From Deltaproteobacteria bacterium (GTDB taxonomy: Bacteria > Desulfobacterota > Desulfobacteria > Desulfobacterales > G020354645): a stretch of DNA of 64,000 nucleotides. How positions within the stretch are numbered: the first letter of the stretch is position 1; every line of letters begins with the position of its first letter. This document shows positions 22,801 through 62,426 of this stretch, in pieces. The notes below the pieces were generated by a model. That model worked only from the letters and a program-made list of their open reading frames with translations, was not told the DNA's origin and searched no databases. The DNA is taken from NCBI GenBank assembly GCA_020354645.1, contig CP070652.1, forward strand, positions 292,818 through 356,817. The letters run 5' to 3'. The position numbers were made by a program, and so were the translations under genes.

Positions 22801-23012
22801 AGTTTGTCCCAGACACAACGGTCAAAACCGGTGCGGTTGAAAGATTTTTGCAAGCGGCACTCGAGTATATTGACAAAAAGGTAACCGAACGAACTGCATA
22901 ACTAAAACCATTAAAACAATTCAATGTTACGCCCCATGCGTTGACCAATCATAGAGATAGAAAAGAGCGCAGCGGTAAGTATAAACAATCAACAACAAAA
23001 AACCAGAACATT

Positions 23013-24053
23013 ATGCGATACTCCAGAGTTTATATTGAATCGTTTGGCTATGAACTTCCCCCAAACGTCGTGACTTCCAGTGACCTTGAGAATCAACTTG
23101 CACCACTCTATGAAACACTCCGATTTCAAAAAGGGCAACTTGAGGTATTGACCGGCATCCGTGAACGCCGGTTTTGGGATACGGGTTATAGAATGCATGA
23201 AGGCGCCATCAATGCAGGTATGAAAGCCATAAAAGCTTCCGGAATCCCCCCAGAGGCCATCGGCATGCTGATTTACGCAGGGGTCTGCAGGGATAATTTA
23301 GAACCGGCAACAGCATGCGCCGTCTCCCACGGTCTGGGACTCTGTCCCGACACCGAGATTTATGATGTCTCCAATGCTTGTCTGGGCGTTTTGAACGGAA
23401 TGGTCCAAGTGGCGAATGCAATAGAACTCGGACAAATCAGGGCCGGATTGGTTGTATCCTGTGAATCCGCCCGTCAGATAGTGGAGGTCACCATTGACAG
23501 ATTACTAAAATCCAGAGATATGGAGACTTTCAAAAAAACCGTCGCCACCCTGACCGGCGGTTCAGGAGCAGTTGGAGTTTTGCTGACCGATGGCGAGTTC
23601 ACACATCACGGTCACCGACTTTTGGGCGGTGTAGCCAGAAATGCTACCGAACACCACAGGCTGTGTTGGTGGGGACCGGATACAGGGATTCCCGCCAGCG
23701 GACCGCAGGTTATGGAAACCGATTCTGTTGGGGTTTTGCAAAACGGGGTCATTCTTGGTGTTGAAACCTTTAAAGCCTTTCGCCGAGAACTCTCTTGGCC
23801 TCATGATAAACCCGACAAGGTCATTTGTCACCAGGTTGGTGCAACCCATCAACAAAACATTCTCGAATCAATAGGGATTCCGAAAGAGAGGGATTTTACC
23901 ACTTTTAAGTACCTTGGCAATATTGGCACAGTATCTCTGCCGATCACCGTTGCAATTGGAGCTGAACGCGGCTTTCTAATGAGAAATGATCTGGTCGGAT
24001 TGCTCGGTATTGGAAGTGGATTAAACTGTTTGATGCTTGGCGTGGCGTGGTGA
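23013..24053 (+). CDS. oleA: OleA, thiolase-fold acyl-CoA:acyl-CoA head-to-head Claisen condensing enzyme
   Basis: Colinear with Xanthomonas OleA as I recall it: LEPATACAV, YDVSNACLGVLNGM (active-site Cys), TLTGGSGAVGVLL, ICHQVG, GNIGTVSLPIT, LLGIGSGLNCLMLGVAW. The start is placed at the ATG of MRYSRVY (23013), which aligns with OleA N-termini. The track ORF starts 72 nt earlier. Confidence 0.88.
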   Translation: MRYSRVYIESFGYELPPNVVTSSDLENQLAPLYETLRFQKGQLEVLTGIRERRFWDTGYRMHEGAINAGMKAIKASGIPPEAIGMLIYAGVCRDNLEPATACAVSHGLGLCPDTEIYDVSNACLGVLNGMVQVANAIELGQIRAGLVVSCESARQIVEVTIDRLLKSRDMETFKKTVATLTGGSGAVGVLLTDGEFTHHGHRLLGGVARNATEHHRLCWWGPDTGIPASGPQVMETDSVGVLQNGVILGVETFKAFRRELSWPHDKPDKVICHQVGATHQQNILESIGIPKERDFTTFKYLGNIGTVSLPITVAIGAERGFLMRNDLVGLLGIGSGLNCLMLGVAW

Positions 24054-24120
24054 TGCCGGATCTAAACATTTATAACCGCATTATAAAAGTTTTCAAAAGA
24101 ACCTCTTGATAAGGCACTTC

Positions 24121-25032
24121 ATGCTGTTTACAAAAGAAGTCAATATCGACAAATTTCGGCATCTATATCCGTTTGATTCTCATTTCATAAAAATAATGGG
24201 TCTGCGGTATCACTTCCTAAATGAAGGTGCGGGCGATCCTGTTGTAATGATTCATGGCAATCCTACCTGGTCCTTTTATTATCGTGAATTGGTCAAAGCC
24301 CTTTCACTAAATTATAAGGTCATTGTGCCGGATCACATCGGCTGCGGTCTTTCTGACAAACCCAGTGGAAAAAACTATGAGTACCGGCTAGAAAGAAGGG
24401 TCAAGGATCTGGAAGCGCTGATGGACCATTTAAACCTAAAGCGAAAATTTACTTTCGTACTCCATGACTGGGGTGGGATCATCGGCATGGTTTATGCCAT
24501 ACGGTATCCTTCACGAATCGGCCGGTTGGTCATTATGAACACCGCTGCATTCCTGCTGCCCAACGGAAAACGGCTACCCCTGAGATTATGGTTGGTTAGA
24601 AACATCAGACCCTTAGCGACATTAGCCGTTCTTGGATTTAACCTTTTTTCATATGGGGCCCTTTTCATGGCATCTCACAGAAAACTTGCAAAGGATGTTA
24701 AAACCGGTCTTACTGCCCCTTACAACAGCTGGAACAACAGGATTGCGACACTTAAGTTTGTACAAGATATCCCCCTGAATGATAAAGATCCCAGTTATGA
24801 TCTGGTCATGTATGTCGATCAAAACCTGCAGTTGTTATCGGATATACCCATGCTGATTTGCTGGGGTGAACGCGACTTCGTCTTCGATAAGGATTTTCTG
24901 GCTGAGTGGCAGCGCCGGTTCCCAAAGGCCGAAGTGCATACATTTTCAGAAGCCGGCCATTATGTGCTCGAAGACGTGCCTGATGAGATCATAAAATTGG
25001 TGGGTAAATTCCTGATGAATAATCCGTTGTGA
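24121..25032 (+). CDS. oleB: OleB, alpha/beta-hydrolase (haloalkane dehalogenase-like) beta-lactone decarboxylase
   Basis: HGNPTWSFYYR, PDHIGCGLSDKP, nucleophile motif LHDWGG, and C-terminal AGHYVLED. Positioned between oleA and oleC. An alternative TTG start lies at 24106. Confidence 0.85.
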   Translation: MLFTKEVNIDKFRHLYPFDSHFIKIMGLRYHFLNEGAGDPVVMIHGNPTWSFYYRELVKALSLNYKVIVPDHIGCGLSDKPSGKNYEYRLERRVKDLEALMDHLNLKRKFTFVLHDWGGIIGMVYAIRYPSRIGRLVIMNTAAFLLPNGKRLPLRLWLVRNIRPLATLAVLGFNLFSYGALFMASHRKLAKDVKTGLTAPYNSWNNRIATLKFVQDIPLNDKDPSYDLVMYVDQNLQLLSDIPMLICWGERDFVFDKDFLAEWQRRFPKAEVHTFSEAGHYVLEDVPDEIIKLVGKFLMNNPL

Positions 25033-25193: not shown

Positions 25194-26864
25194 ATGCACA
25201 GACCTGATCCACCCAACAATGATTTTTTTAATATCTCTTCTTACTTAAAGAGAATGGCCAATATTCTCCCCTTCAAACGGGCTGTTGTCTATCCGGCCGG
25301 TCGCGATAAGCGCGGGCGTGTAACATACGCACATCTGACCTTTGAACAGCTGGATCAAGAATCCGATTGTCTGGCGCATGGACTTGAAAAAACCGGTATT
25401 GTCCGTGGAACCCGCACCATATTAATGGTTCCGCCCGGTTTGGAATTTTTTGCATTAACTTTTGCTATTTTTAAAATCGGCGCCGTACCTGTGGTTGTTG
25501 ATCCAGGAATGGGTGTCCGGCGGATGGTCAGGTGTTTAAAAGAAAGCAGACCCGGAGCGTTTATCGGCATTCCAAAAGCGCATGTATTGCGAAAGCTATA
25601 TCCGAGGTTTTTCAATACGGTAAAGATTTGGATTACGGTGGGCCGGCGCTGGTTCTGGGGTGGCCACACACTTAAAAGTATTCGCCAGTCCCCCTGGAAA
25701 GCTTTTCCGGTAGCCAGAACAAAACGGGACGATATGGCAGCGATACTTTTCACGACCGGCAGTACCGGTCCTCCAAAAGGTGCTGTTTATACCCATGGCA
25801 ATTTTGAGGCCCAGCTGCGACACATAAAGTTACATTTCCATATAACAAGCGATGAAATTGACTTGCCCACCTTTCCCCTTTTTGCTTTGTTTGATCCGGC
25901 ACTTGGCATGACTGCCATCATACCGGATATGGATCCCACAAAACCCGCTTTGGTCAACCCCGAAAGAATCATTGAACCAATTCTAAACCACGGTGTGACC
26001 AATATGTTTGCCTCCCCCGCGCTTCTGAACCGTGTCGGCAGTCATGGCAAGCAACACGGCATAAAACTGCCCTCATTAAAACGGGTTGTTTGCGCTGGCG
26101 CACCGGTAGCACCCGTCAATATCGAGTTGTTTTCCTCAATTTTATGCGGCGGTGCGGAAATACACACGCCGTATGGTGCAACGGAAGCCGTCCCGATTGT
26201 CTCCATCTCCAGCAATGAAATTCTTTCTGAAACCAGACAACGAACAGAGCAGGGTTACGGAATGTGCGTGGGGCGTCCAATCAACGATTTAGAGGTGCGC
26301 ATTATAAAAATAAGCGACCACCCAATCAACCGATGGTCGGATGCCCTTGTTGTTCCTGTTGGTGAGGTCGGTGAAATTGTTGTCAAGGGTAATCTCGTCA
26401 CCCGCACATATTTTGAACGACCCGAGGCCGATGCACTGGCCAAAATCGCGGACGGCACCGGCTTCTGGCACAGGATGGGGGATCTGGGATGGCTGGATCA
26501 GAAGGGGAGGATTTGGTTCTGCGGCCGCAAAAATCACCGGGTAATCACAGAGCATGTCACCTTGTATACCATACCCTGCGAAGCGATCTTTAACAACCAT
26601 CCGCGGGTCTTTCGCAGCGCACTTGTAGGCGTTGGACCCAGGCCAAACCAAAAACCAGTCATATGCATAGAGTTAGAAAAATCATATAGCGGCCGAGACA
26701 AAACAAAAATTCAAAAAGAGCTGCTGGAAATCGCATCCAACCATGACTTGACAAAAAATATTAAAACCGTATTGTTTCACAAGGCTTTTCCGGTGGACAT
26801 TCGCCACAACTCCAAGATATTTCGAGAGAAACTGGCAGTGTGGGCCCAGCAGCAATTGAAATAG
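25194..26864 (+). CDS. oleC: OleC, AMP-dependent beta-lactone synthetase (ANL superfamily)
   Basis: 556 aa. AMP-binding motif FTTGSTGPPKGAVYTH, TPYGATE, HRMGDLGWLDQKGRIWFCGRK. Positioned between oleB and oleD. Confidence 0.88.
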   Translation: MHRPDPPNNDFFNISSYLKRMANILPFKRAVVYPAGRDKRGRVTYAHLTFEQLDQESDCLAHGLEKTGIVRGTRTILMVPPGLEFFALTFAIFKIGAVPVVVDPGMGVRRMVRCLKESRPGAFIGIPKAHVLRKLYPRFFNTVKIWITVGRRWFWGGHTLKSIRQSPWKAFPVARTKRDDMAAILFTTGSTGPPKGAVYTHGNFEAQLRHIKLHFHITSDEIDLPTFPLFALFDPALGMTAIIPDMDPTKPALVNPERIIEPILNHGVTNMFASPALLNRVGSHGKQHGIKLPSLKRVVCAGAPVAPVNIELFSSILCGGAEIHTPYGATEAVPIVSISSNEILSETRQRTEQGYGMCVGRPINDLEVRIIKISDHPINRWSDALVVPVGEVGEIVVKGNLVTRTYFERPEADALAKIADGTGFWHRMGDLGWLDQKGRIWFCGRKNHRVITEHVTLYTIPCEAIFNNHPRVFRSALVGVGPRPNQKPVICIELEKSYSGRDKTKIQKELLEIASNHDLTKNIKTVLFHKAFPVDIRHNSKIFREKLAVWAQQQLK

Positions 26865-26910: not shown

Positions 26911-27927
26911 ATGAATAGGAGGGTGAAATTGAACGTTCTGGTTACCGGGGGTGGCGGTTTTCTCGGCAGTGCGATCGTCAAGCAACTTATTGCAAAAGGT
27001 AACAATGTCCGCAGCTTCTGCCGGAGCTACTACTCAAAACTTGAGGAATTGGGGATTGAACAGATTAAGGGTGACATCGGTGATTCGGGCGCCGTTGAAC
27101 GTGCCTGCAAAGGCATCGATCTTGTATTTCATATTGCCGCCAAGCCTCCCCCATGGGGAAATTATGCGGATTACTATCGAACGAATGTTATCGGGACCCA
27201 AAACGTCATCGATGCCTGTGTCAATCAAAACATCCCAAAACTGGTGTATACGAGCACGCCCAGTGTGGTCTTCAATGGGGCTGACATAGAAGGAGCAGAT
27301 GAATCTTTTCCCTATCCTCGTAAATATAACGCCCACTATCCAAAGACCAAGGCGCTGGCTGAACAAAAAGTTTTAAAATCCGCAAGCGGCAATCTTAGAA
27401 CAATTATATTAAGGCCCCATGAGATTTGGGGTCCGGGTGATAATCATATTGCTCCCCGACTTATTGCAAGAGCCAAGCGGCTGAAAAGAATCGGCAACGG
27501 CAAAAATCTGATCGATACGACCTATATCGACAATGCAGCTAATGCACACCTTCTGGCCGCCGAAAAATTGGATGAAAATGAGGCGCTTTCAGGTAAAATT
27601 TATTTCATCAGCCAGGGGGAACCTATGTTGGCATGGGACATGATCAACGCCATTTTAACGATGGCCGGTTTTGGACCAGTAAAAGGATCTGTACCCTACA
27701 GAATTGCATGGGTGACTGGAGCTTTACTTGAATTTGTGTATAAGATATTTCACCTGTCCGGTGAACCCTATATTACCCGCTTTATGGCTTATGCAGTTGC
27801 CAAAAGCCACTGGTTTGATATCGGTGCGGCCAAGAGAGACTTGGGTTATATCCCCCGCGTTTCCAACGAAGAGGGCCTGCGCAGACTTGAAGAATGGTTC
27901 CGCAAAGACTATCACGCAAGAGGATAA
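26911..27927 (+). CDS. oleD: OleD, NAD(P)H-dependent 2-alkyl-3-ketoalkanoate reductase (3-beta-HSD/SDR family)
   Basis: VLVTGGGGFLGSAIV Rossmann motif and the YxxxK motif in YPKTKALAEQ. 338 aa, and the last gene of the canonical oleABCD order. Confidence 0.85.
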   Translation: MNRRVKLNVLVTGGGGFLGSAIVKQLIAKGNNVRSFCRSYYSKLEELGIEQIKGDIGDSGAVERACKGIDLVFHIAAKPPPWGNYADYYRTNVIGTQNVIDACVNQNIPKLVYTSTPSVVFNGADIEGADESFPYPRKYNAHYPKTKALAEQKVLKSASGNLRTIILRPHEIWGPGDNHIAPRLIARAKRLKRIGNGKNLIDTTYIDNAANAHLLAAEKLDENEALSGKIYFISQGEPMLAWDMINAILTMAGFGPVKGSVPYRIAWVTGALLEFVYKIFHLSGEPYITRFMAYAVAKSHWFDIGAAKRDLGYIPRVSNEEGLRRLEEWFRKDYHARG

Positions 27928-28797: not shown

Positions 28798-29202
28798 ATG
28801 AAGCTATCGACAAGAAGCCGATACGGAACGAGATTACTGGTGGATCTGGCCCGCTATAATGATCAGGCGCCAATCCAAATTAGCGAAATTTCCAAGCGGC
28901 AAGATATTTCGGTGAAATATCTGGAACAACTCATTCGCCCCCTTAAAAAGGCTGGACTTGTCACCAGTGTTCGCGGAGCCAAGGGCGGACACAGGCTGGC
29001 CAAAAAACCTGAACAAATCAAACTGGGTGACATTGTCAGGTTATTCGAAGCGCATAGTGATCTGGTAGATTGCGTCAGCTCCCCTGAAAAATGCGATCTG
29101 GCTGACGATTGTCGTGTCCGTTTAGCTTGGAAGGAAGCCAATGAAGTTCTTTATCAGAAACTGGACAGCTTTACGATAGCCGATCTCATGAAAGAAACAT
29201 AA
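28798..29202 (+). CDS. Rrf2-family transcriptional regulator (IscR/NsrR-like, three-Cys cluster-binding motif)
   Basis: MKLSTRSRYGTRLLVDLA, ISVKYLEQLIRPLKKAGLVTSVRGAKGGHRLA, and the Cys triad CVSSPEKCDLADDC. Confidence 0.88.
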   Translation: MKLSTRSRYGTRLLVDLARYNDQAPIQISEISKRQDISVKYLEQLIRPLKKAGLVTSVRGAKGGHRLAKKPEQIKLGDIVRLFEAHSDLVDCVSSPEKCDLADDCRVRLAWKEANEVLYQKLDSFTIADLMKET

Positions 29203-29514: not shown

Positions 29515-30756
29515 ATGAGAAGAATATTAATTTTGGGGTCAGGAGCCGGCGGAACCATGATGGCCGCTGGCTTGCGGAAACATTTGAATAGCGCCGAATG
29601 GCAAATCACCATCATCGACAATAATGAAATCCACCATTACCAGCCGGGGTGGCTGTTTATTCCATTTGGTGTCTACACTGCAGAAGATTGTCAGAAACCC
29701 AAACGGGAATTCATTCCTAAGGGCGTCGAATTTGTCCTGGATGAAATTGTAGGGGTCAATCCGAATACCAAGGAGGTGGAAGGCAAGAAAGACAATTATA
29801 AATACGATTGGCTGATTGTCGCCACCGGTGTCCGGATTATGCCCGAGGAAGTTGAAGGCATGATGGACGGTTGGGGTGACGATATCCATAATTTCTACAC
29901 CTTGGAGGGTGCAGTGGCGCTTAGAAAAAAGTTGAAATACTTCAAATCCGGTCGGGTGGTTTTGAACGTAGCCGAATTGCCATACAAATGCCCTGTGGCC
30001 CCGCTGGAGTTCATCTTCATGGCCGATTGGTTCTTCACCGAGAATGGGGTCCGCGACGATGTGGAAATTGAACTGGTAACGCCCGTAGCCGGCGCTTTCA
30101 CCAAACCCATCGCTTCCAGAATTTTAGGTGATATCGCGGTACAAAAAAATATTAAAGTAACCCCGAACTATGACATCGCCAAGGTTAACCACGGTGAAAA
30201 AACCATCGAATCCCATAAGGGCGAGAAGGTTTCCTATGATTTACTGATTGCTGTTCCGCCTAATTTTGGTGCCCAGTGGGTCGAGGACTCCGGCATGGGC
30301 GACCCAATGTGTTATGTTGATACCGATCATTTCACACTCAAAGCCAAAGACTACGATAATATTTATGTTATCGGCGATGCCACCAATGTTCCCACCTCCA
30401 AAGCCGGAGCCGTTGCCCATTACGAGTCCGAAACAATCGTCGAAAATTTGATCAGAGAGATCGAAGGCCAAACTCCTAAAGCGACTTTTGACGGCCATGC
30501 CACCTGCTTTATTTGCTCCGGCTATGAAAAAGCGGTTCTGATCGACTTTAATTATGAATATGAGCCTCTGCCCGGCAAATTTCCCTTCCCGGGACTCGGC
30601 CCATTTTCACTCCTTGGAGACAGTAACTTTAATTACTGGGGCAAAATGATGTTCAAATGGGTCTATTGGAACCTTATGCTCAAGGGTGTGGAATTGCCTC
30701 TGGAGCAACAACTGACATTGGCCGGCAAGATGCGGCACGTCCCGGTAACAGAATAG
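29515..30756 (+). CDS. FAD-dependent pyridine-nucleotide-disulfide oxidoreductase, SQR/NDH-II-like
   Basis: 413 aa. N-terminal ILILGSGAGG dinucleotide fold and a second motif IYVIGDA. Strong AAGGAGG Shine-Dalgarno. Followed by a DUF1641-type partner, which is the usual pairing. Confidence 0.7.
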   Translation: MRRILILGSGAGGTMMAAGLRKHLNSAEWQITIIDNNEIHHYQPGWLFIPFGVYTAEDCQKPKREFIPKGVEFVLDEIVGVNPNTKEVEGKKDNYKYDWLIVATGVRIMPEEVEGMMDGWGDDIHNFYTLEGAVALRKKLKYFKSGRVVLNVAELPYKCPVAPLEFIFMADWFFTENGVRDDVEIELVTPVAGAFTKPIASRILGDIAVQKNIKVTPNYDIAKVNHGEKTIESHKGEKVSYDLLIAVPPNFGAQWVEDSGMGDPMCYVDTDHFTLKAKDYDNIYVIGDATNVPTSKAGAVAHYESETIVENLIREIEGQTPKATFDGHATCFICSGYEKAVLIDFNYEYEPLPGKFPFPGLGPFSLLGDSNFNYWGKMMFKWVYWNLMLKGVELPLEQQLTLAGKMRHVPVTE

Positions 30757-30766: not shown

Positions 30767-31441
30767 ATGACAAACGAAGAATTGATTTTAGAACGACTTG
30801 ACCGTGTTGAGACCCAATTGGCGCCATTGGTGGAGACTGCCAAGAGCGTCAGAGAACTTCGGGATGATTTAATTCCTTTGAGCGCCCAGGCCTTCAGGCT
30901 TTTAATTACAGAACTGGAGGATATTGAATCCGGTTTCCAACTAGAAGACTTTATGGCCATGGTGAAGACGCTTATGAGAAGCGTCAGGAACATCACATTC
31001 ATGGCGGAACAACTAAATAATATTGTCGACTTTGTCACAACAATCGAACCCCTATTGAGATCTTCCGTCCCCCAACTGATTAATTATCTGGATGACCTGG
31101 AGCAAAGAGGGGTATTGCGGATGTTTACCGCAATGCTGGATGTCCGTGCCAAGATCGCTGCAGCATATACCCCTGAAGACATCGATAAAATCGGTGATGG
31201 GGTGGTGGCCTTACTCGGTGTGGCAAAAAGACTCAGCGATCCCCAAGTAGCGGCATTCGTGGAGAAAATTGCTGAAATGCCGAGTCACGTGAACCTGTCA
31301 AAATCCAAGGACGTTGGTCCGTTTGGCCTTTTTTCAGCAGCCTCCAGTAAAGAGGTTAAGCAAGGATTGGGGGTTATGATGGAGTTGACAAAAGCAATGG
31401 GCAAACTAAAAAGCAACGGAGGGATAGCCCCTGCCGCATGA
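30767..31441 (+). CDS. DUF1641-like helical protein
   Basis: 224 aa. Repetitive helical segments (LDRVETQLAPLVETAKSVRELRDDL, IVDFVTTIEPLLRSSVPQLINYLDDLEQRGVL). GGGAGG Shine-Dalgarno. Position immediately after the SQR/NDH-II-like gene. Confidence 0.55.
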   Translation: MTNEELILERLDRVETQLAPLVETAKSVRELRDDLIPLSAQAFRLLITELEDIESGFQLEDFMAMVKTLMRSVRNITFMAEQLNNIVDFVTTIEPLLRSSVPQLINYLDDLEQRGVLRMFTAMLDVRAKIAAAYTPEDIDKIGDGVVALLGVAKRLSDPQVAAFVEKIAEMPSHVNLSKSKDVGPFGLFSAASSKEVKQGLGVMMELTKAMGKLKSNGGIAPAA

Positions 31442-32439: not shown

Positions 32440-33696
32440 GTGAGTTCAATTACAATGGCGGATGGTAAGGTTCTGATAATTGGCGGTGGGGTCGCAGGTC
32501 TTTCTGCAGCCTTAGGACTGGCACGACTTGGCCTCGAAGTCCAAATAGTTGAAAAGAAAAGCTTTCTGGGTGGCCACGCCATTAGATTTTCGTGCAAAGC
32601 CACGGACAGATGCGTGAAATGCGGTGCCTGTAGGGTGGAAGAAACACTAAAAAATGTGACAAATAATCCGAAAATCAAAGTATGGACAGAGACCCGTGTT
32701 ATTAATGTCTCCAAGGCGAACACATTTACGATACATCTGTCCAAGCGACCAGAATATATCAACCCCCGGAAGTGCACCCGATGTGGTGCCTGCTTTGATC
32801 AATGTCCAGAGTCTGGAGCTCTCATCCAGGGACATTCTAACTACAATTTCCCATTCATCGCCATCTATGAAGAAAAATGCAGATTTATGCGGGATCGTTC
32901 GTGTTGCATATGCCAGGAGATTTGCCCTGAAGCAGCGATCCAACTCGATGGAAACAGCCAACAGAAAGTATATCTTGCGGATGCAATAATAATAGCTACA
33001 GGTTTCCAGCCCTTCAATCCTGAAAGTAAGCCTTATGGATATAATTCATTTCCAAACGTCATCACCAACCTGCAACTGGAAGAGATGCTCAAACGGGAAA
33101 GCATCGTGTTAAGACCCTCTGATAATACGATTCCTAAAAAGATCGCATTCATCCAATGTGTGGGAAGCAGAGATGCGAAGCTCAATCATTTATGGTGTTC
33201 AAAAGTATGTTGTGCCTCGGCACTTCGCTTGGCGAGATTGATCAAAAGTAGACAACCAGAAATTGAAATTTCATTTTTCTACATTGATGTCCAGACATTC
33301 GGTAGAGATTTTCAGGCATTTTATGCGGCTGTGCAAAATGAGGTGCGCATGATCCGCAACATACCCGGTGATATTTACCAAACGGAGGATAAACGCTTGC
33401 AAGTCAATTTTTACGATGCCGCATTGGCTGTTACCCAAGAGGAAATATTCGATATGGTGGCATTATCCATTGGCATCACGCCATCTTCTGAATTGAATAA
33501 AATGGTTGAATTGTTTGAATTGAGGCTCGATGAAACGGGTTTTGCCTTTGGATCCGGAGAAACGCAATGGTTTTCAGTCCCGGGAGTTTACACGGCCGGA
33601 ACAGCATCCGGCCCCATGAGTATCGCCGATACGATTGCAAGTGCCAGCCAGGCGGTGACGGCAGTCGCAAAATTATTGCGTCAAAAAGCAGGCTGA
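32440..33696 (+). CDS. HdrA-like FAD- and FeS-containing oxidoreductase
   Basis: VLIIGGGVAGLSAAL FAD fold. Cys clusters CVKCGAC, CTRCGACFDQCP and CCICQEICPEAAI. HdrA signatures FIQCVGSRD and WCSKVCC. The start may instead be the ATG at 32455 (MADGKV). Confidence 0.8.
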   Translation: MSSITMADGKVLIIGGGVAGLSAALGLARLGLEVQIVEKKSFLGGHAIRFSCKATDRCVKCGACRVEETLKNVTNNPKIKVWTETRVINVSKANTFTIHLSKRPEYINPRKCTRCGACFDQCPESGALIQGHSNYNFPFIAIYEEKCRFMRDRSCCICQEICPEAAIQLDGNSQQKVYLADAIIIATGFQPFNPESKPYGYNSFPNVITNLQLEEMLKRESIVLRPSDNTIPKKIAFIQCVGSRDAKLNHLWCSKVCCASALRLARLIKSRQPEIEISFFYIDVQTFGRDFQAFYAAVQNEVRMIRNIPGDIYQTEDKRLQVNFYDAALAVTQEEIFDMVALSIGITPSSELNKMVELFELRLDETGFAFGSGETQWFSVPGVYTAGTASGPMSIADTIASASQAVTAVAKLLRQKAG

Positions 33697-33786: not shown

Positions 33787-35370
33787 GTGGATAAAACAAT
33801 CCTGATAATCGGCAATGGAAACTGCGCACAAAGAATTGCAGAAAATCTTCTCGTTCAGGGTGTAAATGTGATTATTGCCTCGAAGGATCAACACTTCGAA
33901 TTCGCTTTGTCCTCCGCTGCCAAGCGTCAAACCTGGGGATCAATTGAAATCTTAACCCCCACCTCAGTACTGGCTTGTTATGGTTTTATCGGCCTATTTG
34001 ATATTTTGTTCCAAAGTGCCAGGGAAAAAATTCGCCGTAACGCATCCATCATCATTATTGCCGAAGACTATGAACTAAAACCCAATTTCGACCTATATGA
34101 TCTCAATCCGTCTGTTTATGTATGGTCACTTTCACAAATCAATGAATCCGTGAACGGTTTACAGCATTTAAAAAAAAATCTTCCCATAGGTTCAAAGATA
34201 GCCTTTCTCACCGGATTGATAAAAGAAAGCAACGCTGTAATCCAGGAAAACGTCATGCGGACCGCTTTGCGACTTCAATTGGATCTTGAACTGCAAACCT
34301 ACATTTTTACAGGAAACCTTAAAGTGTCCGGAAAGGGTCTCGAGGCTCTGTCCCGGGAATTAAAAAAAGCCGGTGCCGTCATTAGCAAATTTACCAAAAA
34401 CATTCCTCAAATCATTCAAAACAGGGACGGCAGCATAAGCATCACGTATCTCGATGAAGTCACCTTGCAACATTTTATCCTGATCCCGGATATAACAGTT
34501 GTTGATGAAACAATCTACCCATCGAACTATCTGCCCCATTTGGCAGACGTATTTGGTCTGGAAACCGATCTGCTCGGATTTCTTCAGGCCGACAATGTCC
34601 ATCGGATTCAGACACACACAAACCGCAAAGGGATACTTGCAGCCGGACCTTCTAAAGCCGTTCAGAGTATCGCAGACCATCTAAGTGACGCTGACGGTGC
34701 TGCCCAAACTGCTATTGAGTTTTTAAGGGGCTCATTTTTCCAAACCCGGTATACAGCAGAAATAAATACAGGAATGTGCGTGCGTTGCTTGACCTGTTTA
34801 CGATTGTGTCCTCATCATGCAATTTCTTTTGGTGCAAAACTTGGGGTCATCCTTGAGGCCTGTGAGGGTTGTGGATTATGTGCCGCCGAATGCCCTGCAA
34901 CTGCCATCAGCCAGCAGCATTTGCAGGATAATATCATCAATCAAAATTTTTTGAACAGGCCAAAACAAATAGACCCTGCTTCGCCATCAATCGTAGCCTT
35001 CTGCTGCGGTCGATCTGCCGTCCCGTGCGCTGAACTGGCCCGTTGCATGCGGCATAAACTTCCGCAGGGATTGTTCATTGTTGAGGTGCCTTGCGCATGC
35101 AGTATATCAATTGAATACATTCTAACTGCCTTTACCAACCTGGCAGAAGGTGTCCTCGTTCTGACCTGCCATGAAGGCAACTGCTATTCCGAAAAAGGAA
35201 TACTCTTTGCGAACAATCGCACAAATCAGGTTTTGGATTTTTTCGAGCAAACAACGTCATCCGGAAAGCGGATTGAAATGCACACAATAGCTTCTAATAT
35301 GGGTACAGAGTTTTTTGAGATTGTAAATCAGTTTGAGAAAATGTTAATTGATATGGGTCCACTGCATTAA
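33787..35370 (+). CDS. Fusion protein: degenerate HdrA-like Rossmann domain + 2x[4Fe-4S] ferredoxin + MvhD-like domain
   Basis: ILIIGNGNCAQ at the N-terminus. CVRCLTCLRLCP and CEGCGLCAAECP ferredoxin motifs. C-terminal VAFCCGRSAVPCAE...VPCACSI...LVLTCHEGNCYSEKG is typical of the methyl-viologen-reducing hydrogenase delta subunit (MvhD). Confidence 0.75.
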   Translation: MDKTILIIGNGNCAQRIAENLLVQGVNVIIASKDQHFEFALSSAAKRQTWGSIEILTPTSVLACYGFIGLFDILFQSAREKIRRNASIIIIAEDYELKPNFDLYDLNPSVYVWSLSQINESVNGLQHLKKNLPIGSKIAFLTGLIKESNAVIQENVMRTALRLQLDLELQTYIFTGNLKVSGKGLEALSRELKKAGAVISKFTKNIPQIIQNRDGSISITYLDEVTLQHFILIPDITVVDETIYPSNYLPHLADVFGLETDLLGFLQADNVHRIQTHTNRKGILAAGPSKAVQSIADHLSDADGAAQTAIEFLRGSFFQTRYTAEINTGMCVRCLTCLRLCPHHAISFGAKLGVILEACEGCGLCAAECPATAISQQHLQDNIINQNFLNRPKQIDPASPSIVAFCCGRSAVPCAELARCMRHKLPQGLFIVEVPCACSISIEYILTAFTNLAEGVLVLTCHEGNCYSEKGILFANNRTNQVLDFFEQTTSSGKRIEMHTIASNMGTEFFEIVNQFEKMLIDMGPLH

Positions 35371-35417: not shown

Positions 35418-36638
35418 ATGTCAAATACTTCTGAAAAATTCCTTATCAATCTTTTAGATCATGGCTGCTTTAAATCGTGGACGTTTTCACAAGATGTATG
35501 TCTTACTTGCGGAATATGTTCGAGTTGTTGTCCGGCTTCCGGTATCGACGGCTTCGATCCACGAAAACTTGTTCGGATGGTGGCCCTCGGACTGCAAGAT
35601 GAAGTTGTTGAAGCCAGATGGCCATGGATATGCACGATATGTGCGAAGTGTGAAAACGTTTGCCCGATGGATATCGATATCTCCAATATCGTAAGAAGGG
35701 TTCGGTCTTTAAGAGACCGAGACAGAGTGCCGGGTGTACTTCAAAAAGGGGTTGAGATGGCCCTGAAAACCGGAAACATTCTCGGCCTGCCAAAAGAAGA
35801 TTTTATTTTCATCGTTGAAGATGTCGCTGCAGAATTGGCCGAAGAACCCGGCTTTGAAGAGTTTAAGGTTCCCATCGACAAAAAGGGGGCCAATATCCTG
35901 TGTACGATTCACAATAAATTGGTGAATACACATACTGAGGATCTTAAACACTGGTGGAAAATCTTTTATGCTGCTGGGGAAGATTGGACAATATCTTCTG
36001 ATTATTGGGAAGGATGTAACTGGGGATACTTCACCGGAGATGATATGGCCAGCAAGACCATGGTAGGCCGCATTGCTGAAAATCTGAAAAAGCTTGAGAT
36101 AAAAAATTTCCTCTGGTGTGAATGAGGCCACTCCTATTTGGCGACCAGGTCTGGTTTTGAAAGGTGGTACCCTGAAGCCCTCAAAAAGTTAGGCACTTAT
36201 ACCGTTTTTGATCTGATTATAAAATATATCAAAGAAGGCAGAATCACGCTGGATAAGTCCAAGTTCGACATGCTGATAACCTATCATGATCCCTGCCATT
36301 ATGGTCGTAAAGCTGAGAAACTTTTTGGGCATGGGTATTTTGAAGAACCACGTTGGATACTTGACCAGTGTGTTGAGAATTGGGTCGACCTGTATCCTGC
36401 AAGAGACAATCAGATTTGCTGTGGCGGAGGTGGCGGGGCCCTTACCACTGGATATAACCAAGAACGAATATATTACGGTAGGAAAAAAATGGAACAGATC
36501 AAGGCTACGGGGGCAACAATGATCGTTGTCCCCTGCGACAGTTGTCATAGCCAATTAAATAATCTGAAAAAAGAATACGAAATGGATAATCTTCAGGTTA
36601 AATATCTTTGGGAGCTGGTGGCCGATTGTCTTATTTGA
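35418..36638 (+). CDS. HdrD/HdrCB-like FeS oxidoreductase, predicted selenoprotein (in-frame UGA at 36123-36125 read as Sec)
   Basis: The track ORFs 35418..36125 and 36138..36638 share one frame and are separated only by TGA plus four sense codons. The N-terminal part has HdrC-like motifs CLTCGICSSCCP and CTICAKCENVCP. The C-terminal part has a CCG domain (DPCHYGRK, CCGGGGG, PCDSCH). A SECIS-like hairpin follows the TGA. Read-through gives ...NFLWCE-U-GHSYLATRSG... Confidence 0.7.
36133..36164 (+). promoter_or_regulatory. Bacterial SECIS-like hairpin (selenocysteine insertion signal)
   Basis: Lower stem CCU(A)UUU (36133-36139) pairs with GAAAGG (36159-36164). Upper stem ACCA (36144-36147) pairs with UGGU (36152-36155). 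Apical loop GGUC (36148-36151). The apical CCAGGUCUGG closely resembles the E. coli fdhF SECIS minihelix GCAGGUCUGC. The loop lies 23 nt after the UGA. Confidence 0.6.
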
Positions 36639-43609: not shown

Positions 43610-45994
43610 CTAGTTTATACACACCCGTCGAACTTCAGAAACATCGGTGTGCCCTTGGAAAGCCTTCATGATGCCATCTTGCTTTAAGGTGGTCATGCCT
43701 TCTTTAATCGCCTGGGCAAAAAGCATTTCAGTAGGAGTCGCCTTTTTAATCATTCTTTTTATTTCATCGGTGCCCTCCATGAGCTCATGGATACCCATGC
43801 GACCCCTGTAGCCGGTACTGGAGCAAGAGGCGCAGGCGCCCGGCCGTTTGAGGGTAACTTCGGATGAGTAAATTATCCCGGTTTTCTCAAACATTTTCTT
43901 TCCATAATCCGAGACGATTTCTTGAAACTCCTCCCGTGCTGGATTATAATCTTTACTGCAGTCGGCACATAATCTTCTAACCAATCGCTGGGCCAACACA
44001 GCCAGAAAAGCATCCGAAAAATTCAGCGGATTAAGGCCCATGTCAAGCAATCGTGTCACCGTCTCAGGTGCACTGTTGGTGTGCAGGGTTGAAAGGACCA
44101 GATGACCGGTGAGCGAAGCCTCCACACCAATGGAAGCCGTTTCCTCATCCCGCATTTCGCCGATCATAATGATGTCCGGATCCGCCCTTAAAAAGGCACG
44201 CATGACCCTCGCAAAATCAAGTCCGATTCGGGGCTTAACCTCTACTTGTCTTAAACCGGCCTGAGTGATCTCAACCGGGTCTTCAGCGGTCCAGATTTTA
44301 ACGCCGGGTTTGTTGATATGGGCCAGCGCGGAGTGAAGTGTGGTAGTCTTGCCGGAACCAGTCGGACCCACGCACAATATGAGACCGTAAGGATTCAAAA
44401 TTGCTTTTTTCAAAACAGTATAATTCCTTTTGGTCAGCCCCATATCCTCCAATTGCATAGCCCCGGCCTTGGCCAGAATCCTCATCACAGCATCCTCGTA
44501 ACCGCCAGCAGTCGGCAATGTGGCCACTCGCAGTTCAAAGGACGGTATGCCTTTCCGTTTAAACTTTATTTTACCGTCCTGGGGCAGCCGTCGTTCAGCG
44601 ATGTCCAGATGAGACATAATTTTTATCCGTGAAAGAATAGCCCGGGCCATTGAATTAGGTACTTTGAGATAATCCTGACACACACCGTCCATCCGGAATC
44701 GGATGCTCGTGGCCTTGGTGATCGGTGATGGCTCAATGTGGATATCGGAGGATCCTTTGCGATATGCCGCAATAATACACTGATCAACCAGCTTGACCAC
44801 CTTGCTGGAACTTTCATCAACTTCTTCGATATCATCATCGTAATCTTCATCTTCTTCAAAGGAGACATCTGGAATCAGATCGTAATCATCGACGCCATCC
44901 TCGCTAACCTCCCCTTCTGTCAATTGTTGGTTTTCAGCATAGAACCGTTTAATGAATTCTTCGATGTCCTCCTTTATCGCCACGGAGAAATTGATCTTGG
45001 GGGTGTTCAACAAGGCTTTTATATTGTCGGTTTTATTCAGGTCCCGAGGATCATCGACCAGCACCTCAACCGCATCCTTATCCCAACTGAACGGCACCCA
45101 CCCTTCGTTGAGCAGAAATGCCTCTTTCAGATTTCCTAACAGCTCCGTAGGAGTTGGCACTGCCGGATCATAATCGCGGAAAGGACAGCCGTAGTATAGA
45201 GAAAAAGATTTGCCAATGGCGGCCTTGCTGAGGCCATATTGACCGGTTAGAACAAATTCTACGCTCTTTTTCATTTTCTTAGAAAGCGCAAAAGCTTTCT
45301 GAAGCTGATCTTTTGTAACCTTTTTTTGCTTTAAGAGATAATCATATTTTGACCCCGAAGCGAAGCCTGCCGTAAGCGCGTTCACTCTTTTCTTGATTTC
45401 AGTGTCGGCCGGATTTACTTGTAGTGCTGATTTATAGAGATCCAATGCCGGTTCCTTATGATCTCTTTTCTCCATTTCCTGGCCAAAATAATACTTAACT
45501 CGTGCTCTGGCATCTTTTTCAAGCCGCTGATCATCGGTTAAATTATTGATATAATCGACAACCTTGTCGGGTGACTTATTCTTCAGAAGGCATTCGGTAA
45601 AATCGGCAACAATCTTATCCGGCGGAAACCCCTGGAATATTAATTTTTCATACTCATTAATGGCCTCAACATATAGTCCTAATTCCTTGAAACTGGCAGC
45701 ACTGTCTAGAAGTGTTTGACCGCTGAGGATATCGCGACCACTTTCTTGGCCTGACAATTTTTTCTTGAGCATGGATATGTCTTCTGCAGTAACTCGACTG
45801 CTTTCCGTATGCGTCCGATCGGCCATCTCCTGTTTAACGGCGTCAATTTTCTTTTTAATCGTCTCGGTCGTTCGGGCATCCTTTTCGGGAATTAATGAAA
45901 GAAGTTGCTCATAGATACTGAGAGACTCATCATACAATCCCATGGAGCGGCAGACTTCTGCCTCATTCAGTCTGGTGTCTAATTCGGCTTTCAT
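43610..45994 (-). CDS. GspE/PilB-family secretion ATPase with N-terminal TPR-like extension and T2SSE_N domain
   Basis: 794 aa. Walker A GPTGSGKTTT, Walker B-like DPDIIMIGEMRD, His box LTGHLVLSTLHTN, and a tetra-Cys motif CADC...CASC. The T2SSE_N-like segment is KVTKDQLQKAFALSKK...LSKAAIGKSFSLYYGCPF. The first 200 or so residues are TPR-like helices. Confidence 0.85.
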   Translation of the reverse strand: MKAELDTRLNEAEVCRSMGLYDESLSIYEQLLSLIPEKDARTTETIKKKIDAVKQEMADRTHTESSRVTAEDISMLKKKLSGQESGRDILSGQTLLDSAASFKELGLYVEAINEYEKLIFQGFPPDKIVADFTECLLKNKSPDKVVDYINNLTDDQRLEKDARARVKYYFGQEMEKRDHKEPALDLYKSALQVNPADTEIKKRVNALTAGFASGSKYDYLLKQKKVTKDQLQKAFALSKKMKKSVEFVLTGQYGLSKAAIGKSFSLYYGCPFRDYDPAVPTPTELLGNLKEAFLLNEGWVPFSWDKDAVEVLVDDPRDLNKTDNIKALLNTPKINFSVAIKEDIEEFIKRFYAENQQLTEGEVSEDGVDDYDLIPDVSFEEDEDYDDDIEEVDESSSKVVKLVDQCIIAAYRKGSSDIHIEPSPITKATSIRFRMDGVCQDYLKVPNSMARAILSRIKIMSHLDIAERRLPQDGKIKFKRKGIPSFELRVATLPTAGGYEDAVMRILAKAGAMQLEDMGLTKRNYTVLKKAILNPYGLILCVGPTGSGKTTTLHSALAHINKPGVKIWTAEDPVEITQAGLRQVEVKPRIGLDFARVMRAFLRADPDIIMIGEMRDEETASIGVEASLTGHLVLSTLHTNSAPETVTRLLDMGLNPLNFSDAFLAVLAQRLVRRLCADCSKDYNPAREEFQEIVSDYGKKMFEKTGIIYSSEVTLKRPGACASCSSTGYRGRMGIHELMEGTDEIKRMIKKATPTEMLFAQAIKEGMTTLKQDGIMKAFQGHTDVSEVRRVCIN

Positions 45995-47501: not shown

Positions 47502-48620
47502 TCACGAAGCTTTATCAATGTCGACAATTTTAATCCCCGCCACATAATCCATCGCTTCATATTTTTTTATCTTTCCGATTTTTTCGGTGATCTCGTTCAT
47601 CTTTTGAATTTGGTTGTTGATAATCATAATTTTTTGATATTGGGGATCATCTGGCCGCGAATCATTTACGATATCATTAATGACATTGTTAATAATTGTC
47701 AGGGGTTGATTCAAGCGATGAACCACTCCACCTGCCATCTCGAGTACCCCCTGAAATTTATCCCTGCTGGTATTGTCCTTCTGTTTTTTTATCTTCTCTG
47801 TGATATCATGTGCTATGCCTTTGATATGATGTGCCTTGCCATATTTTCTTATCAATACTGCATTGAATTCGAGTTGATGATCAACACCCCTGCCGTCTGT
47901 TAGGTCAAAAATAACCTCCTCCGATCCAAATTTTAAGATATCAGCAAGAAATAGCAGAAAAAGTTCACGGTGCGGGGGGATGAGAAAATCAGATAATGAT
48001 TTCTCCACCAAGTCCCTGACAGGATACCCCAGCAATTCGGCGCCGACCTCGTTAATATCTATTATGTTACCCTGTAAGTCAAAAATGATGATAATGTCAT
48101 CCGCTCCGACGATTCCAGCAAGTTTCGGCACTTCATCTTTTTCTTCAACCTGATCCGTAATATCTTTCAAAACGCCGTCGAGATGGACTACAATTCCATC
48201 GTCATCGGGGACAGCTCTGGCGGTCACTGCACACCAAATGGCTGTTCCGTCTTTCTTTATGAATGAAATTGGCAAATCGGAAACTCGTCCTCTATGCATC
48301 ACCGCATCAACTAAAACTCCCCGGTCTTTTTTGTTTCGATACAGATTTATGGCCGGGCTGCTAATTAATTCATCAGGACTGTCATATCCGAGCGTTTGCG
48401 CAAAACCCCTGTTACAAAATACGATACTTCCCTCTATGGTCGTGCGATAAATAGCCACCGGTATGCTGTTAATAAAGGCGATATATCGCCCGGCTAAGCT
48501 GTCAGATAAATCTTGAGGAGATATTCCCGTCATGTTTATTTTGCCGATAAAAGATAATAGGCTGTTGCGCGTGTAGTCTGGATCATTAAACCAAAACAAA
48601 CGGATGGGCGCTGAGTTCAT
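47502..48620 (-). CDS. PAS-PAS-DHp protein lacking a HATPase_c catalytic domain
   Basis: Two PAS-like segments (YRTTIEGSIVFCNRGFAQTLGY... and IIIFDLQGNIIDINEVGAELLGY...). H-box-like motif AGGVVHRLNQPLTII. The ORF ends about 70 aa after the His, with no N/G1/G2 boxes. Confidence 0.7.
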   Translation of the reverse strand: MNSAPIRLFWFNDPDYTRNSLLSFIGKINMTGISPQDLSDSLAGRYIAFINSIPVAIYRTTIEGSIVFCNRGFAQTLGYDSPDELISSPAINLYRNKKDRGVLVDAVMHRGRVSDLPISFIKKDGTAIWCAVTARAVPDDDGIVVHLDGVLKDITDQVEEKDEVPKLAGIVGADDIIIIFDLQGNIIDINEVGAELLGYPVRDLVEKSLSDFLIPPHRELFLLFLADILKFGSEEVIFDLTDGRGVDHQLEFNAVLIRKYGKAHHIKGIAHDITEKIKKQKDNTSRDKFQGVLEMAGGVVHRLNQPLTIINNVINDIVNDSRPDDPQYQKIMIINNQIQKMNEITEKIGKIKKYEAMDYVAGIKIVDIDKAS

Positions 48621-48623
48621 GGT

Positions 48624-49607
48624 TCAAATGCGTATGCCCAAGTCAGATAACCTTGCTTCATATTTTTTAATCCATGATGACAGATAATTTTTTAACTCCG
48701 GCAGCAAGCTGAATTCCTCTGCCAATTCCACCACTGATTCGACAACGCCGTTAACCAGATCTTTTTCTTCGGTTTCTCCAGTAAAAGAAATAGTGCGGTT
48801 AGCGTACTCAAATTCAGCTGCAAATGGGTCGAGAAACGTGTATTTTTCTGCATTTTCTACAAATTTTTTCCGTAAGGCCTTGTTGAAATCCACTTGCTTG
48901 TCTTGTTTAGAGGCGAAAAGGGTTTCAAAAATACCCAAAAATTCTTCAAGCATTCTAATGACATTGATAGAAAAGCCAGTACCGGTTTTAAGAGGTTTAT
49001 CACTCACCTGATTCTTTTTCAGGGGAATTTTACTTACCTGAAATACACCGCCTGAATCCTTCGACTTATTTATCAGTATTTCAAGGTTCCGCTTGAATGG
49101 AAGTGACTCCTCTTTTCCCCATGAAAATGAACCGCCGATTATCTCTCCATTGCTCATAAAGATAAGACCGCCTTCATCGCCGTTGCCAATTGATATATCG
49201 ATAAAGCCGGTTAATTTCTCGGATCCCATCTTTTTAATCAATCCTTCCAGATCGGTAAATTCAGTGCTTAAATCTTTGTATATCTTATCGGCCGAGGGTA
49301 AGCTGGACCAAAAATATACTTCTTCCTGGGGAATTCTATAAACATCGATGGAAAAATTGTATTCAGATTCTTCCTCCATAAAACGATCGATGGCTTCATA
49401 GCCTAAAATGTCGTTATCTTTATCCCGAAAATAGCCGTTTAGATATTCGTCTTTATCAAAAAATATCACGCCTTCCGCGTTGGAAGATTTAAAGAATATA
49501 CCGCCTGACCCAATTTCACCTTGAAAGTGTTCAATCAATTTCCGGAGATCTATATAGTACATATTCAGGTTTTGCATTACAGGTTTTTCTTTAGGAACAA
49601 CGACCAT
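48624..49607 (-). CDS. Hypothetical protein with two PATAN/DUF4388-like modules
   Basis: Two segments match the PATAN-like pattern: IDLRKLIEHFQGEIGSGGIFFKSSNAEGVIFFDKDEYLNGYF....GYEAI and TDLEGLIKKMGSEKLTGFIDISIGNGDEGGLIFMSNGEIIGGSF. Strong AAGGAGA Shine-Dalgarno 5 nt before the ATG. Confidence 0.5.
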   Translation of the reverse strand: MVVVPKEKPVMQNLNMYYIDLRKLIEHFQGEIGSGGIFFKSSNAEGVIFFDKDEYLNGYFRDKDNDILGYEAIDRFMEEESEYNFSIDVYRIPQEEVYFWSSLPSADKIYKDLSTEFTDLEGLIKKMGSEKLTGFIDISIGNGDEGGLIFMSNGEIIGGSFSWGKEESLPFKRNLEILINKSKDSGGVFQVSKIPLKKNQVSDKPLKTGTGFSINVIRMLEEFLGIFETLFASKQDKQVDFNKALRKKFVENAEKYTFLDPFAAEFEYANRTISFTGETEEKDLVNGVVESVVELAEEFSLLPELKNYLSSWIKKYEARLSDLGIRI

Positions 49608-52130: not shown

Positions 52131-52736
52131 CTATCTCAGTTCCTTGATTATTGAAGAAATCGTCATCGAGATTATCTTTTTCATGGTTGCCACAACATTT
52201 GTTCCCACCAGAGCGCTGGCTTTAAACGATGGTGTTTTTAATTTATCGTTTAAATCCTCTTCAAGCGTATTTATGGGAAGCAATGGTATTCCCTGTTCGG
52301 CAAGATCTATTTTATTATACTGCAGAACGATGGGAATTTTAAAGATGCTTTTTTTGTAGTTGGCCAGGTTTTCCTGCAGGTTCTTAAGAGAAAGTATATT
52401 TTTCTCCCGTCGCACTGCCATGGCATCTGCCACAAACACAATACCATCAGCTCCTCTCAAGACAAGTCTACGCGTTGCATTATACTTTACCTGTCCCGGC
52501 ACGGTATAAAGTTGTATTTTAATGTCATATCCGTTAACTTTCCCGATATCAAAAGGAAGAAAGTCAAAGAAGAGCGTACGGTCTCCGTGTGTTTTAATCG
52601 TAACCATTTCGGTTTTGATGCGCTCTCTGAATTTTTTATATATGTATTCCAGATTGGTCGTCTTACCGCCCCTTCCCGGGCCGTAGTATACGATTTTAAC
52701 CTGGACCTCTTTCTTTTTCGGATTAATAAATGCCAT
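52131..52736 (-). CDS. mglA: MglA-like Ras-superfamily small GTPase
   Basis: Colinear with Myxococcus MglA as I recall it: KIVYYGPGRGGKTTNLEYIY (P-loop), GDRTLFFDFLP (intrinsic Arg), LYTVPGQV (catalytic Gln), GADGIVFVAD, LQYNKIDL (NKxD). Confidence 0.88.
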   Translation of the reverse strand: MAFINPKKKEVQVKIVYYGPGRGGKTTNLEYIYKKFRERIKTEMVTIKTHGDRTLFFDFLPFDIGKVNGYDIKIQLYTVPGQVKYNATRRLVLRGADGIVFVADAMAVRREKNILSLKNLQENLANYKKSIFKIPIVLQYNKIDLAEQGIPLLPINTLEEDLNDKLKTPSFKASALVGTNVVATMKKIISMTISSIIKELR

Positions 52737-62343: not shown

Positions 62344-62418
<75 letters not shown>

Positions 62419-62426
62419 CAAAAAAA

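Follow-up and report, generated by a model that had tools for sequence, protein, structure and literature searches.

Does the TGA codon at positions 36123–36125 of the DNA studied here end a gene, or does it lie within one? The DNA is a 64,000-nucleotide stretch of a deltaproteobacterial genome, referred to below as the window. On its forward strand a single frame of 407 codons runs from 35418 to 36638, and its translation meets no other stop before the terminal TGA at 36636–36638. The listed open reading frames (ORFs) divide this frame into 35418–36125, which encodes 235 residues from an ATG, and 36138–36638, which encodes 166 residues from a TTG four codons past the internal TGA. A preliminary description, made from the letters of the window, had noted that the first ORF ends in TGA and continues in the same frame as the second with no other stop between them; the translation agrees, and every motif that it had listed (WCE-*-GHS, DPCHYGRK, CCGGGGG, and PCDSCH) is present in it. 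We find that the internal UGA very probably encodes selenocysteine (Sec, U), placed at residue 236 in the context W-C-E-U-G-H-S, and that the two ORFs make up one HdrD-like (GlpC-type) Fe–S protein of 406 residues.

Conservation of the Internal TGA and of the Sequence beyond It

We searched 5.8 billion proteins with the window protein and scanned one genome per GTDB species, which gave 586 confirmed relatives; the best 80 loci were kept. These are 64 to 76% identical to the window protein, and their labels are nearly all Desulfobacterales or other Deltaproteobacteria/Thermodesulfobacteriota. With the window they form a set of 81 aligned sequences, and with two further, more closely related loci from metagenomes (L082 and L083) a set of 83. 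The codon aligned with the internal stop is TGA in all 80 loci, each from a different GTDB species, and never TAA or TAG; with the window and the metagenome loci counted, the tally is 83 of 83. The stop codon of ordinary window genes is TAA in 15 cases, TAG in 11, and TGA in 11 (∼30%), so the uniformity of this codon is not ordinary stop usage.

The sequence around the codon is equally regular, the residues E-U-G-H-A/S-Y being invariant. The usual context in the 80 loci is L-W-P-E-U-G-H-A-Y-L-A-T, followed by ∼171 in-frame codons, and the U-G-H motif is found in 81 of the 81 aligned sequences, the window reading E-U-G-H-S. In the subclade of the window the first half ends in FLWCE, and L082 and L083 agree with the window in the TGA, in the sequence after it, and in the in-frame continuation. 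Both halves of the gene are conserved and collinear in the 80 genome loci and the two metagenome loci. By tblastn the C-terminal half lies at +3, in frame, in 80 of the 80 genome loci, where its identity to the window (61 to 79%) is close to that of the N-terminal half (62 to 77%).

One alternative holds that the TGA is a true stop and that a 235-residue HdrC-like ferredoxin and an HdrB-like CCG protein of ∼166 residues are made separately, by reinitiation or translational coupling. The Hdr of methanogens does have separate HdrC and HdrB subunits, each matched by one of the two halves; gene callers yield precisely this split, and in the window a TTG follows the TGA closely. That TTG, at 36138, is nevertheless CTG, CTT, or CTC in most relatives, and in 51 of the 81 sequences the 25 codons that follow the TGA include no ATG, GTG, or TTG in frame. 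The residues between the TGA and the possible starts are invariant while their codons drift synonymously: codons +1 to +4 encode G, H, A or S, and Y, with third positions left free (GGG/GGC/GGT/GGA, CAC/CAT, GCC/GCT/GCA/GCG, and TAT/TAC). Since these residues are invariant, start codons are few, and the C-terminal half is conserved in frame, independent initiation cannot explain the pattern. A TGA in every sequence, set against 30% among ordinary window genes, also speaks against a true stop, as do the full-length relatives and the HmcF, TmcB, and DsrK protein models, all of them single chains here, and the covarying hairpin with a SelB-type loop described below. We consider two separate polypeptides very improbable.

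The protein search returned two populations. The first comprises many proteins of ∼235 residues, 70 to 99% identical to the window protein and ending exactly at the end of the first ORF, under names such as “4Fe-4S dicluster domain-containing protein” (Desulfonema magnum) and “heterodisulfide reductase subunit C” (NCBI and JGI). The second comprises proteins of ∼485 residues that are ∼50% identical and align with 94% of the read-through product; an additional HTH_17 domain precedes the aligned part. The preliminary description had raised the possibility that homologs are genuinely split at the UGA; they are not, as the ∼485-residue relatives are continuous and each of the HmcF, TmcB, and DsrK models covers the two halves together. 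It had also anticipated that automated annotation would cut the gene in two, and this is what the 235-residue NCBI and JGI entries reflect. In L083 the C-terminal half is called as a separate 150-residue “CCG” gene (2617–3069), and in L082 the C-terminal half of the Sec gene is not called at all. L082 (3737–5798) contains, in addition, a second, uninterrupted HdrD-like gene of 439 residues with Fer4 and CCG domains, ∼1.3 kb downstream of its Sec gene.

A Covarying Hairpin Downstream of the UGA

A selenocysteine insertion sequence (SECIS) of the bacterial kind would be expected shortly after the recoded UGA, and a conserved minihelix lies at 36143–36156 on the forward strand. It consists of a 5-bp stem (GACCA/UGGUU) closed by the loop GGUC at 36148–36151; the helix starts 17 nt and the loop 22 nt after the TGA. 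We aligned the region without gaps over 66 columns, with the TGA in columns 4–6, and counted base pairs among the 75 distinct sequences. The upper helix pairs columns 24–28 with columns 33–37 (36143–36147 with 36152–36156 in the window). The pair 28–33 is A–U in 37 sequences and C–G in 23, and the pair 24–37 is G–C in 58, G–U in 9, and A–U in 7. Pairs 26–35 and 27–34 are invariably C–G, and the bases C26, C27, G29, G30, G34, and G35 never vary.

The observed covariation score and percentage of paired bases were reached by none of 500 column shuffles. Sliding the 3′ partners reduced the paired fraction from 84% to 47 to 64%, and the slid registers score much lower. Ten apparent “C–C” exceptions turned out to be a shift of register, in which ACCCGGUCCGGGUU restores the 5-bp stem with GGUCC as the loop. 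The hairpin appears at the same place in the fold of 81 of 81 sequences. RNAalifold, applied to the 66-column alignment, recovers the three innermost pairs only, and the count of pairs in the named structure is more informative.

The compensatory changes fall at synonymous positions, with Arg AGG↔CGG occurring together with Ser UCU↔UCG. Codon choice in the stem and loop is narrow: Thr is ACC in 80 of 81 sequences, Arg is AGG or CGG only, and Gly is GGU or GGG only. Because the changes in the hairpin are synonymous, it is the RNA that constrains the choice of codons, and the aligned sequences indicate that the hairpin is under selection.

The apical sequence had been said in the preliminary description to nearly copy the SelB-binding one of Escherichia coli fdhF, and we compared the two directly on the K-12 fdhF sequence. 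At codon 140 of fdhF the arrangement is TGA-N18-GGTC within GCAGGTCTGC; in the window it is TGA-N22-GGTC within CCAGGTCTGG (36145–36154). Both elements lie in coding sequence just past the UGA, the GGUC loop, borne on a short G+C-rich helix, and its closing A–U pair are identical, and 8 of 10 apical bases agree (GCAGGUCUGC vs. CCAGGUCUGG), which bears out the likeness. The elements differ in spacing, the loop being 22 nt from the UGA in the window and 18 in fdhF (4 nt further), and perhaps in the upper stem: that of the window runs for 5 bp until it meets an unpaired C on its 5′ strand, whereas the E. coli SECIS literature gives 4 bp and then a bulged U for fdhF. The unpaired C (column 23) is at least 90% conserved below the 5-bp helix. 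A conserved, covarying hairpin with an fdhF-type GGUC loop thus stands at the right distance for a SECIS element, as a check proposed with the preliminary description had asked.

The same description had placed the start of the hairpin 8 nt downstream of the UGA and had counted a lower stem with a bulge as part of the element. A longer hairpin does start at 36133, its extended and bulged lower stem bringing the whole to 36133–36164, but this lower stem is not conserved in relatives, in which only the upper minihelix is. Pairs 14–45, 15–44, and 19–41 are unpaired in more than 75% of the relatives, and double changes are all but absent from the remaining lower pairs. The extension is largely specific to the lineage of the window and is unsupported as part of the conserved element. 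In E. coli the upper minihelix alone is needed for SelB binding, and conservation of only the upper part fits this requirement.

Domains, Cysteines, and the Place of the Probable Sec

We ran the domain search with Cys written at the internal stop. The N-terminal part is an HdrC-like ferredoxin domain (35499–35663) with two CxxCxxCxxxC motifs (C28/31/34/38 and C72/75/78/82) for two [4Fe-4S] clusters. Pfam Fer4_8/Fer4_17 models match it, with the 4Fe-4S dicluster domain at residues 26–87, and so do the HdrC chains of solved Hdr complexes (E = 1e-12 to 5e-17). The C-terminal part is a complete CCG domain (36276–36557) with C293, C334, C335, C373, and C376 at a predicted noncubane [4Fe-4S] site; Pfam CCG matches residues 287–380 (E = 1.5e-12), and the second CCG domain of HdrB chains matches residues 283–384. 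Among the 81 Sec proteins the CxxCxxCxxxC cysteines are 96 to 100% conserved and the five C-terminal ones 100%. The HdrC-like motifs of the first ORF and the canonical CCG repeat of the second were therefore correctly recognized in the preliminary description, as was the overall HdrD/GlpC-type architecture, given the HdrC and HdrB matches and the HmcF, TmcB, and DsrK models that extend over both halves. Matches to the GlpC models NF008369 and TIGR03379 are weak and cover the N-terminal part.

Between these two domains lies the region that carries Sec. The family profile aligns with the solved HdrD-like chain 9ojn_A over both CCG domains and sets the Sec column against the leading Cys of C-P-H-C, the CxxC of the N-terminal CCG domain. 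Where 9ojn_A has C-T-G, the family has W-T-I. Since W-T-I replaces the triplet and Sec stands at the first Cys of the CxxC, the N-terminal CCG domain is degenerate, with Sec alone kept. The protein accordingly has one complete CCG motif of the form CxnCCGxmCxxC, the C-terminal one, and not two. Aligned with each other, the two CCG-like halves are collinear, though the match is statistically weak (hhalign E = 0.07); it agrees with the earlier observation that the UGA falls within one residue of the terminal PCDSCHS of the second repeat, but the placing of Sec relies on the alignment with 9ojn_A.

Of the earlier claim of a degenerate first CCG repeat, the degeneration stands, but the cysteines assigned to that repeat do not belong to the family as a whole: C162, C200, and C234 of the window occur in 1 to 4% of the 81 sequences. 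C200 and C234 recur in the subclade of the window (P0001, P0012, P0016, P0030, P0032, L082, and L083), whereas C162 is shared with P0001 alone, a protein 99% identical to that of the window. This subclade reads C-E-U where 77 of the 80 genome relatives read W-P-E-U, and it has Cys200 (36015–36017) within W-E-G-C-(N/S)-W-G where the others have Thr. Judging from its position two residues before Sec, Cys234 (36117–36119) could form a local selenenylsulfide.

At the Sec position, 10 full-length relatives have Cys in 6 cases, Ser in 3, and Ala in 1. A Cys therefore aligns with the UGA in 6 of 10, and also in 9ojn_A, which answers a question that the preliminary description had posed. Another cysteine, Cys318 (36369–36371), lies within the C-terminal CCG domain but is not among its canonical ligands. 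The Sec proteins retain it in 99% of cases and the HTH-fused relatives without exception, whereas 9ojn_A lacks an equivalent; it is a candidate partner for Sec236. The HTH-fused relatives themselves (P0002–P0046, e.g., P0004 from Desulforhabdus amnigena) carry an N-terminal HTH_17 domain, excisionase/MerR-like, on an HdrD-like body, and might be redox-sensing regulators built on the HdrD scaffold.

Probable Decoding of the UGA as Sec

The best explanation overall is that 35418–36638 is one gene for a soluble HdrD-like selenoprotein of 406 residues, its UGA recoded via the SECIS element, and we hold this with high confidence. On the aligned sequences, the comparative evidence of a TGA in 83 of 83 together with a covarying hairpin is decisive.

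Several observations weigh against this explanation. Evidence for the hairpin from the single sequence is modest: the folding energy of 36117–36190 is unremarkable (z = +0.94) and lies at the 13th percentile of synonymous recodings of the window, while the exact 5-bp stem with a GG loop occurs in 0.3% of such recodings. Rfam has no matching family, either in a scan of the window at gathering thresholds or in a sensitive scan of 36060–36260, where the matches were of chance level (E ∼2 to 7). Genes for selA, selB, selD, and tRNA-Sec were not found within the 64-kb window, so the Sec-decoding trait of the source genome is assumed from its relatives. Non-Sec relatives are not strictly Cys at the position, and the Ser (3 of 10) and Ala (1 of 10) indicate that the residue is dispensable in at least the HTH-fused branch, whose members are paralogs of ∼50% identity. 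Last, proteomics of S. fumaroxidans left the HdrD of the Hdr/Flox cluster undetected (PMC5947623).

The lack of visible Sec machinery in the window also favors an alternative in which the UGA is read through without Sec, by a near-cognate tRNA (Trp, Cys, or Arg) or under an altered code, and the hairpin does no more than stimulate the event. In other systems, read-through can indeed be promoted by a stem-loop that follows the stop codon. The genetic code is not reassigned here, however, since TGA is the ordinary terminator of 11 of the 37 window genes, and it terminates the Sec gene itself. The loop is the specific SelB-binding GGUC of fdhF, with G residues that are invariant at synonymous positions, and the Cys found at the position in relatives makes a classic Sec/Cys pair. 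The UGH motif is that of a curated selenoprotein family (PMC13188914). The genes selA, selB, and selD occur in related Desulfobacteraceae, together with many selenoproteins: D. autotrophicum HRM2 has the full selABCD set with tRNA-Sec (PMC2702500), and D. multivorans has selA, selB, and selD along with SECIS-bearing hdrA and mvhD genes (PMC5109826). Read-through by any means other than Sec insertion consequently strikes us as highly unlikely.

A last alternative, with a bare internal stop and nothing more in its favor, takes the gene for a pseudogene in this organism and the TGA for a nonsense mutation or an error of sequencing. It is barely credible and, as far as the aligned sequences can tell, already refuted by the same codon in 82 independent assemblies, the purifying selection on both halves, and the absence of frameshifts.

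Gene Neighborhood

The Sec gene is the last of a three-gene module on the forward strand. The first gene, at 32440–33696, encodes an HdrA-like subunit of the flavin adenine dinucleotide/Fe–S type, recognized by Pfam and NCBIfam and covering positions 139–561 of the HdrA2 model. The second, at 33787–35370, encodes a fusion of the C-terminal part of HdrA (HdrA2 positions 419–773), a ferredoxin, and an MvhD/VhuD protein, the FlpD/MvhD domain occupying residues 402–524. The order, HdrA-like gene, MvhD fusion, and Sec gene, is conserved: the MvhD fusion lies directly upstream of the Sec gene in 77 of the 80 related loci and the HdrA-like gene upstream in 67 of the 80, with many contigs ending nearby. 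The first two genes share a frame and were considered as a second recoded gene, but several stops separate them and they are two genes. No systematic in-frame TGA was found in the hdrA-like or mvhD-fusion genes of the related loci. The next gene downstream of the module, on the opposite strand, encodes a universal stress protein.

Further upstream in the window are a sulfide quinone reductase (SQR)-like gene, a DUF1641 gene (30767–31441), and, preceding them, an Rrf2 regulator (28798–29202), none of which was found within ∼6 kb in the 80 related loci. The SQR-like gene (29515–30756, forward strand), ∼4.7 kb upstream of the Sec gene, encodes a 413-residue flavoprotein that scores 660 bits against the NCBIfam model NF049943, “type III sulfide quinone reductase, selenoprotein subtype” (cutoff 525). 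We rejected it as a second selenoprotein: its frame contains no TGA and closes with TAG. The protein resembles, rather, a Cys-containing member of a family with a Sec subtype.

A search of the window for other long ORF–TGA–ORF junctions found a single case, at 48626 on the minus strand. The ORFs 48624–49607 (327 residues, without a family match) and 47502–48620 (a PAS sensor) share a frame and are separated by TGA, one codon, and ATG. With an ATG 3 nt past the stop, we read them as two adjacent genes and rejected the junction as a second case of recoding.

Elsewhere in the window, a pfa-type polyunsaturated fatty acid/polyketide synthase set stands directly before oleA-, oleB-, oleC-, and oleD-like genes (3153–27927 in all). 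The set includes PfaD (3153–4829), a PfaA-like protein with KS-AT-ACP-KR-DH domains (5693–12196), and a PfaC-like protein with KS and FabA domains (15736–22800); the ole genes occupy 22941–24053, 24106–25032, 25194–26864, and 26911–27927. The arrangement is of the kind linked to polyunsaturated hydrocarbon synthesis. Between pfaA and pfaC, on the minus strand, lie gspC and gspN type II secretion genes (13603–15414) and an ADP-ribosylglycohydrolase-like gene (12227–13009). The minus strand at 52131–53210, 43610–45994, and 62344–62501 carries, in turn, genes for an MglA-like small GTPase with an MglB-like partner, for a PilB-type ATPase of 794 residues that is much extended at its N terminus, and for tRNA-Cys and tRNA-Gly, these last two side by side.

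Relation to Known Proteins

The gene is a member of an already known family, the “Fe-S oxidoreductase-like (GlpC)” selenoproteins described between 2004 and 2009, and the earlier remark that such oxidoreductases are a reported bacterial selenoprotein family is borne out by the literature (PMC1794560, PMC13188914, and PMC2702500). Zhang et al. in 2006 listed “Fe-S oxidoreductase (GlpC)” among 25 bacterial selenoprotein families; the Sec genes of this family cluster with hdrA and frhD, in a published operon of the order glpC-hdrA-frhD-frhG-frhA (PMC1794560). A GlpC-type selenoprotein is present in the Olavius symbionts as well (PMC1976440), and a 2026 review gives the Sec motif of the family as UGH, crediting its reference 12 (PMC13188914). 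The window gene shares with the family the UGH motif, the Fe–S and CCG domains, the Cys homologs, the SECIS element, and hosts that are sulfate-reducing or syntrophic Deltaproteobacteria, and it agrees in part in its association with hdrA and frhD/mvhD. It differs in gene order, which in the window is hdrA-like gene, hdrA′/mvhD fusion, and glpC-like gene, with no hydrogenase genes following and with frhG and frhA absent from the window. The comparison was one of motif, domains, SECIS element, and context, and the window gene may be an ortholog or a paralog of the published members.

The 2009 genome paper on D. autotrophicum HRM2 describes a Sec-containing hdrD4 and split hdrA genes with mvhD (PMC2702500). 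HdrD4 resembles the window protein, in a match made by description only, as a soluble HdrD (a homolog of HdrC plus HdrB) annotated with Sec in a member of the Desulfobacteraceae, and the genome resembles the window in its split hdrA and associated mvhD genes.

The N-terminal half resembles the HdrC of methanogens (Protein Data Bank 5odc, 7bkb, and 8rvu; E down to 5e-17 with the family profile), and the C-terminal CCG domain (283–384) resembles the second one of HdrB, with the ligand pattern CxnCCGxmCxxC. In the methanogen complexes, however, HdrB and HdrC are separate subunits, whereas the window protein is a single fused chain; and HdrB has two complete CCG motifs with noncubane clusters and no Sec, whereas the first motif of the window protein is reduced to W-T-I and Sec. 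The CoM-S-S-CoB heterodisulfide is known only from methanogens (PMC5947623) and cannot, for that reason, be the substrate of the window protein.

The best near-full-length NCBIfam matches are to HmcF (E = 8e-49), TmcB (9e-45), and DsrK (1e-41), which share the single-chain HdrD-type architecture. The scores are far below the curated cutoffs (167 vs. 750 bits for HmcF, 153 vs. 735 for TmcB, and 143 vs. 400 for DsrK), and the protein is therefore an HdrD-type fusion and not an equivalog of any of the three. It differs from them also in its partners: genes for membrane subunits are not adjacent, and the neighboring genes encode soluble HdrA and MvhD proteins.

Discussion

We propose that the minihelix recruits SelB with Sec-tRNA(Sec) to a ribosome paused at the UGA, so that Sec would be inserted at codon 236. 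The product would carry two HdrC-type [4Fe-4S] clusters and one noncubane [4Fe-4S] cluster at the complete C-terminal CCG domain, while the N-terminal CCG-like domain would have lost its cluster ligands and kept Sec at the first Cys of the terminal CxxC. Together with the split HdrA flavoprotein and the MvhD fusion the protein would make up a soluble complex, of which it would be the catalytic end. Electrons might pass from the HdrA flavin to MvhD, on to the ferredoxin-type clusters, and from there to the noncubane cluster, possibly by bifurcation or confurcation. The noncubane cluster and Sec236 might then jointly reduce a putative substrate of the disulfide type or another sulfur compound, with the invariant Cys318 perhaps acting as the resolving partner.

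In the structure of HdrB, the substrate site lies between two noncubane clusters that face one another. By analogy with this geometry, Sec236, at a former ligand position of the lost cluster, may face the cluster that remains. An active site of “one cluster plus selenol,” made of Sec236, Cys318, and the remaining noncubane [4Fe-4S] cluster, is a tentative suggestion that we think has well below an even chance of being right. If true, the site would differ in mechanism from that of HdrB, with its two clusters, and would be nearer in its logic to ferredoxin:thioredoxin reductase.

The gene adds one more well-supported member to a known, biochemically uncharacterized selenoprotein family. Two points about the family are sharpened: the placing of Sec at a former noncubane-ligand position of a degenerate CCG domain, and the conserved three-gene module of split HdrA, MvhD fusion, and Sec-containing HdrD. 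Genes of this kind are already known, and manual annotation has even recorded one in a related genome, yet they continue to be truncated by automated pipelines. Public databases hold hundreds of truncated 235-residue entries, with the catalytic CCG half missing or called separately, and because of this truncation metabolic reconstructions of the Desulfobacterales miss a complete HdrD-like catalytic subunit.

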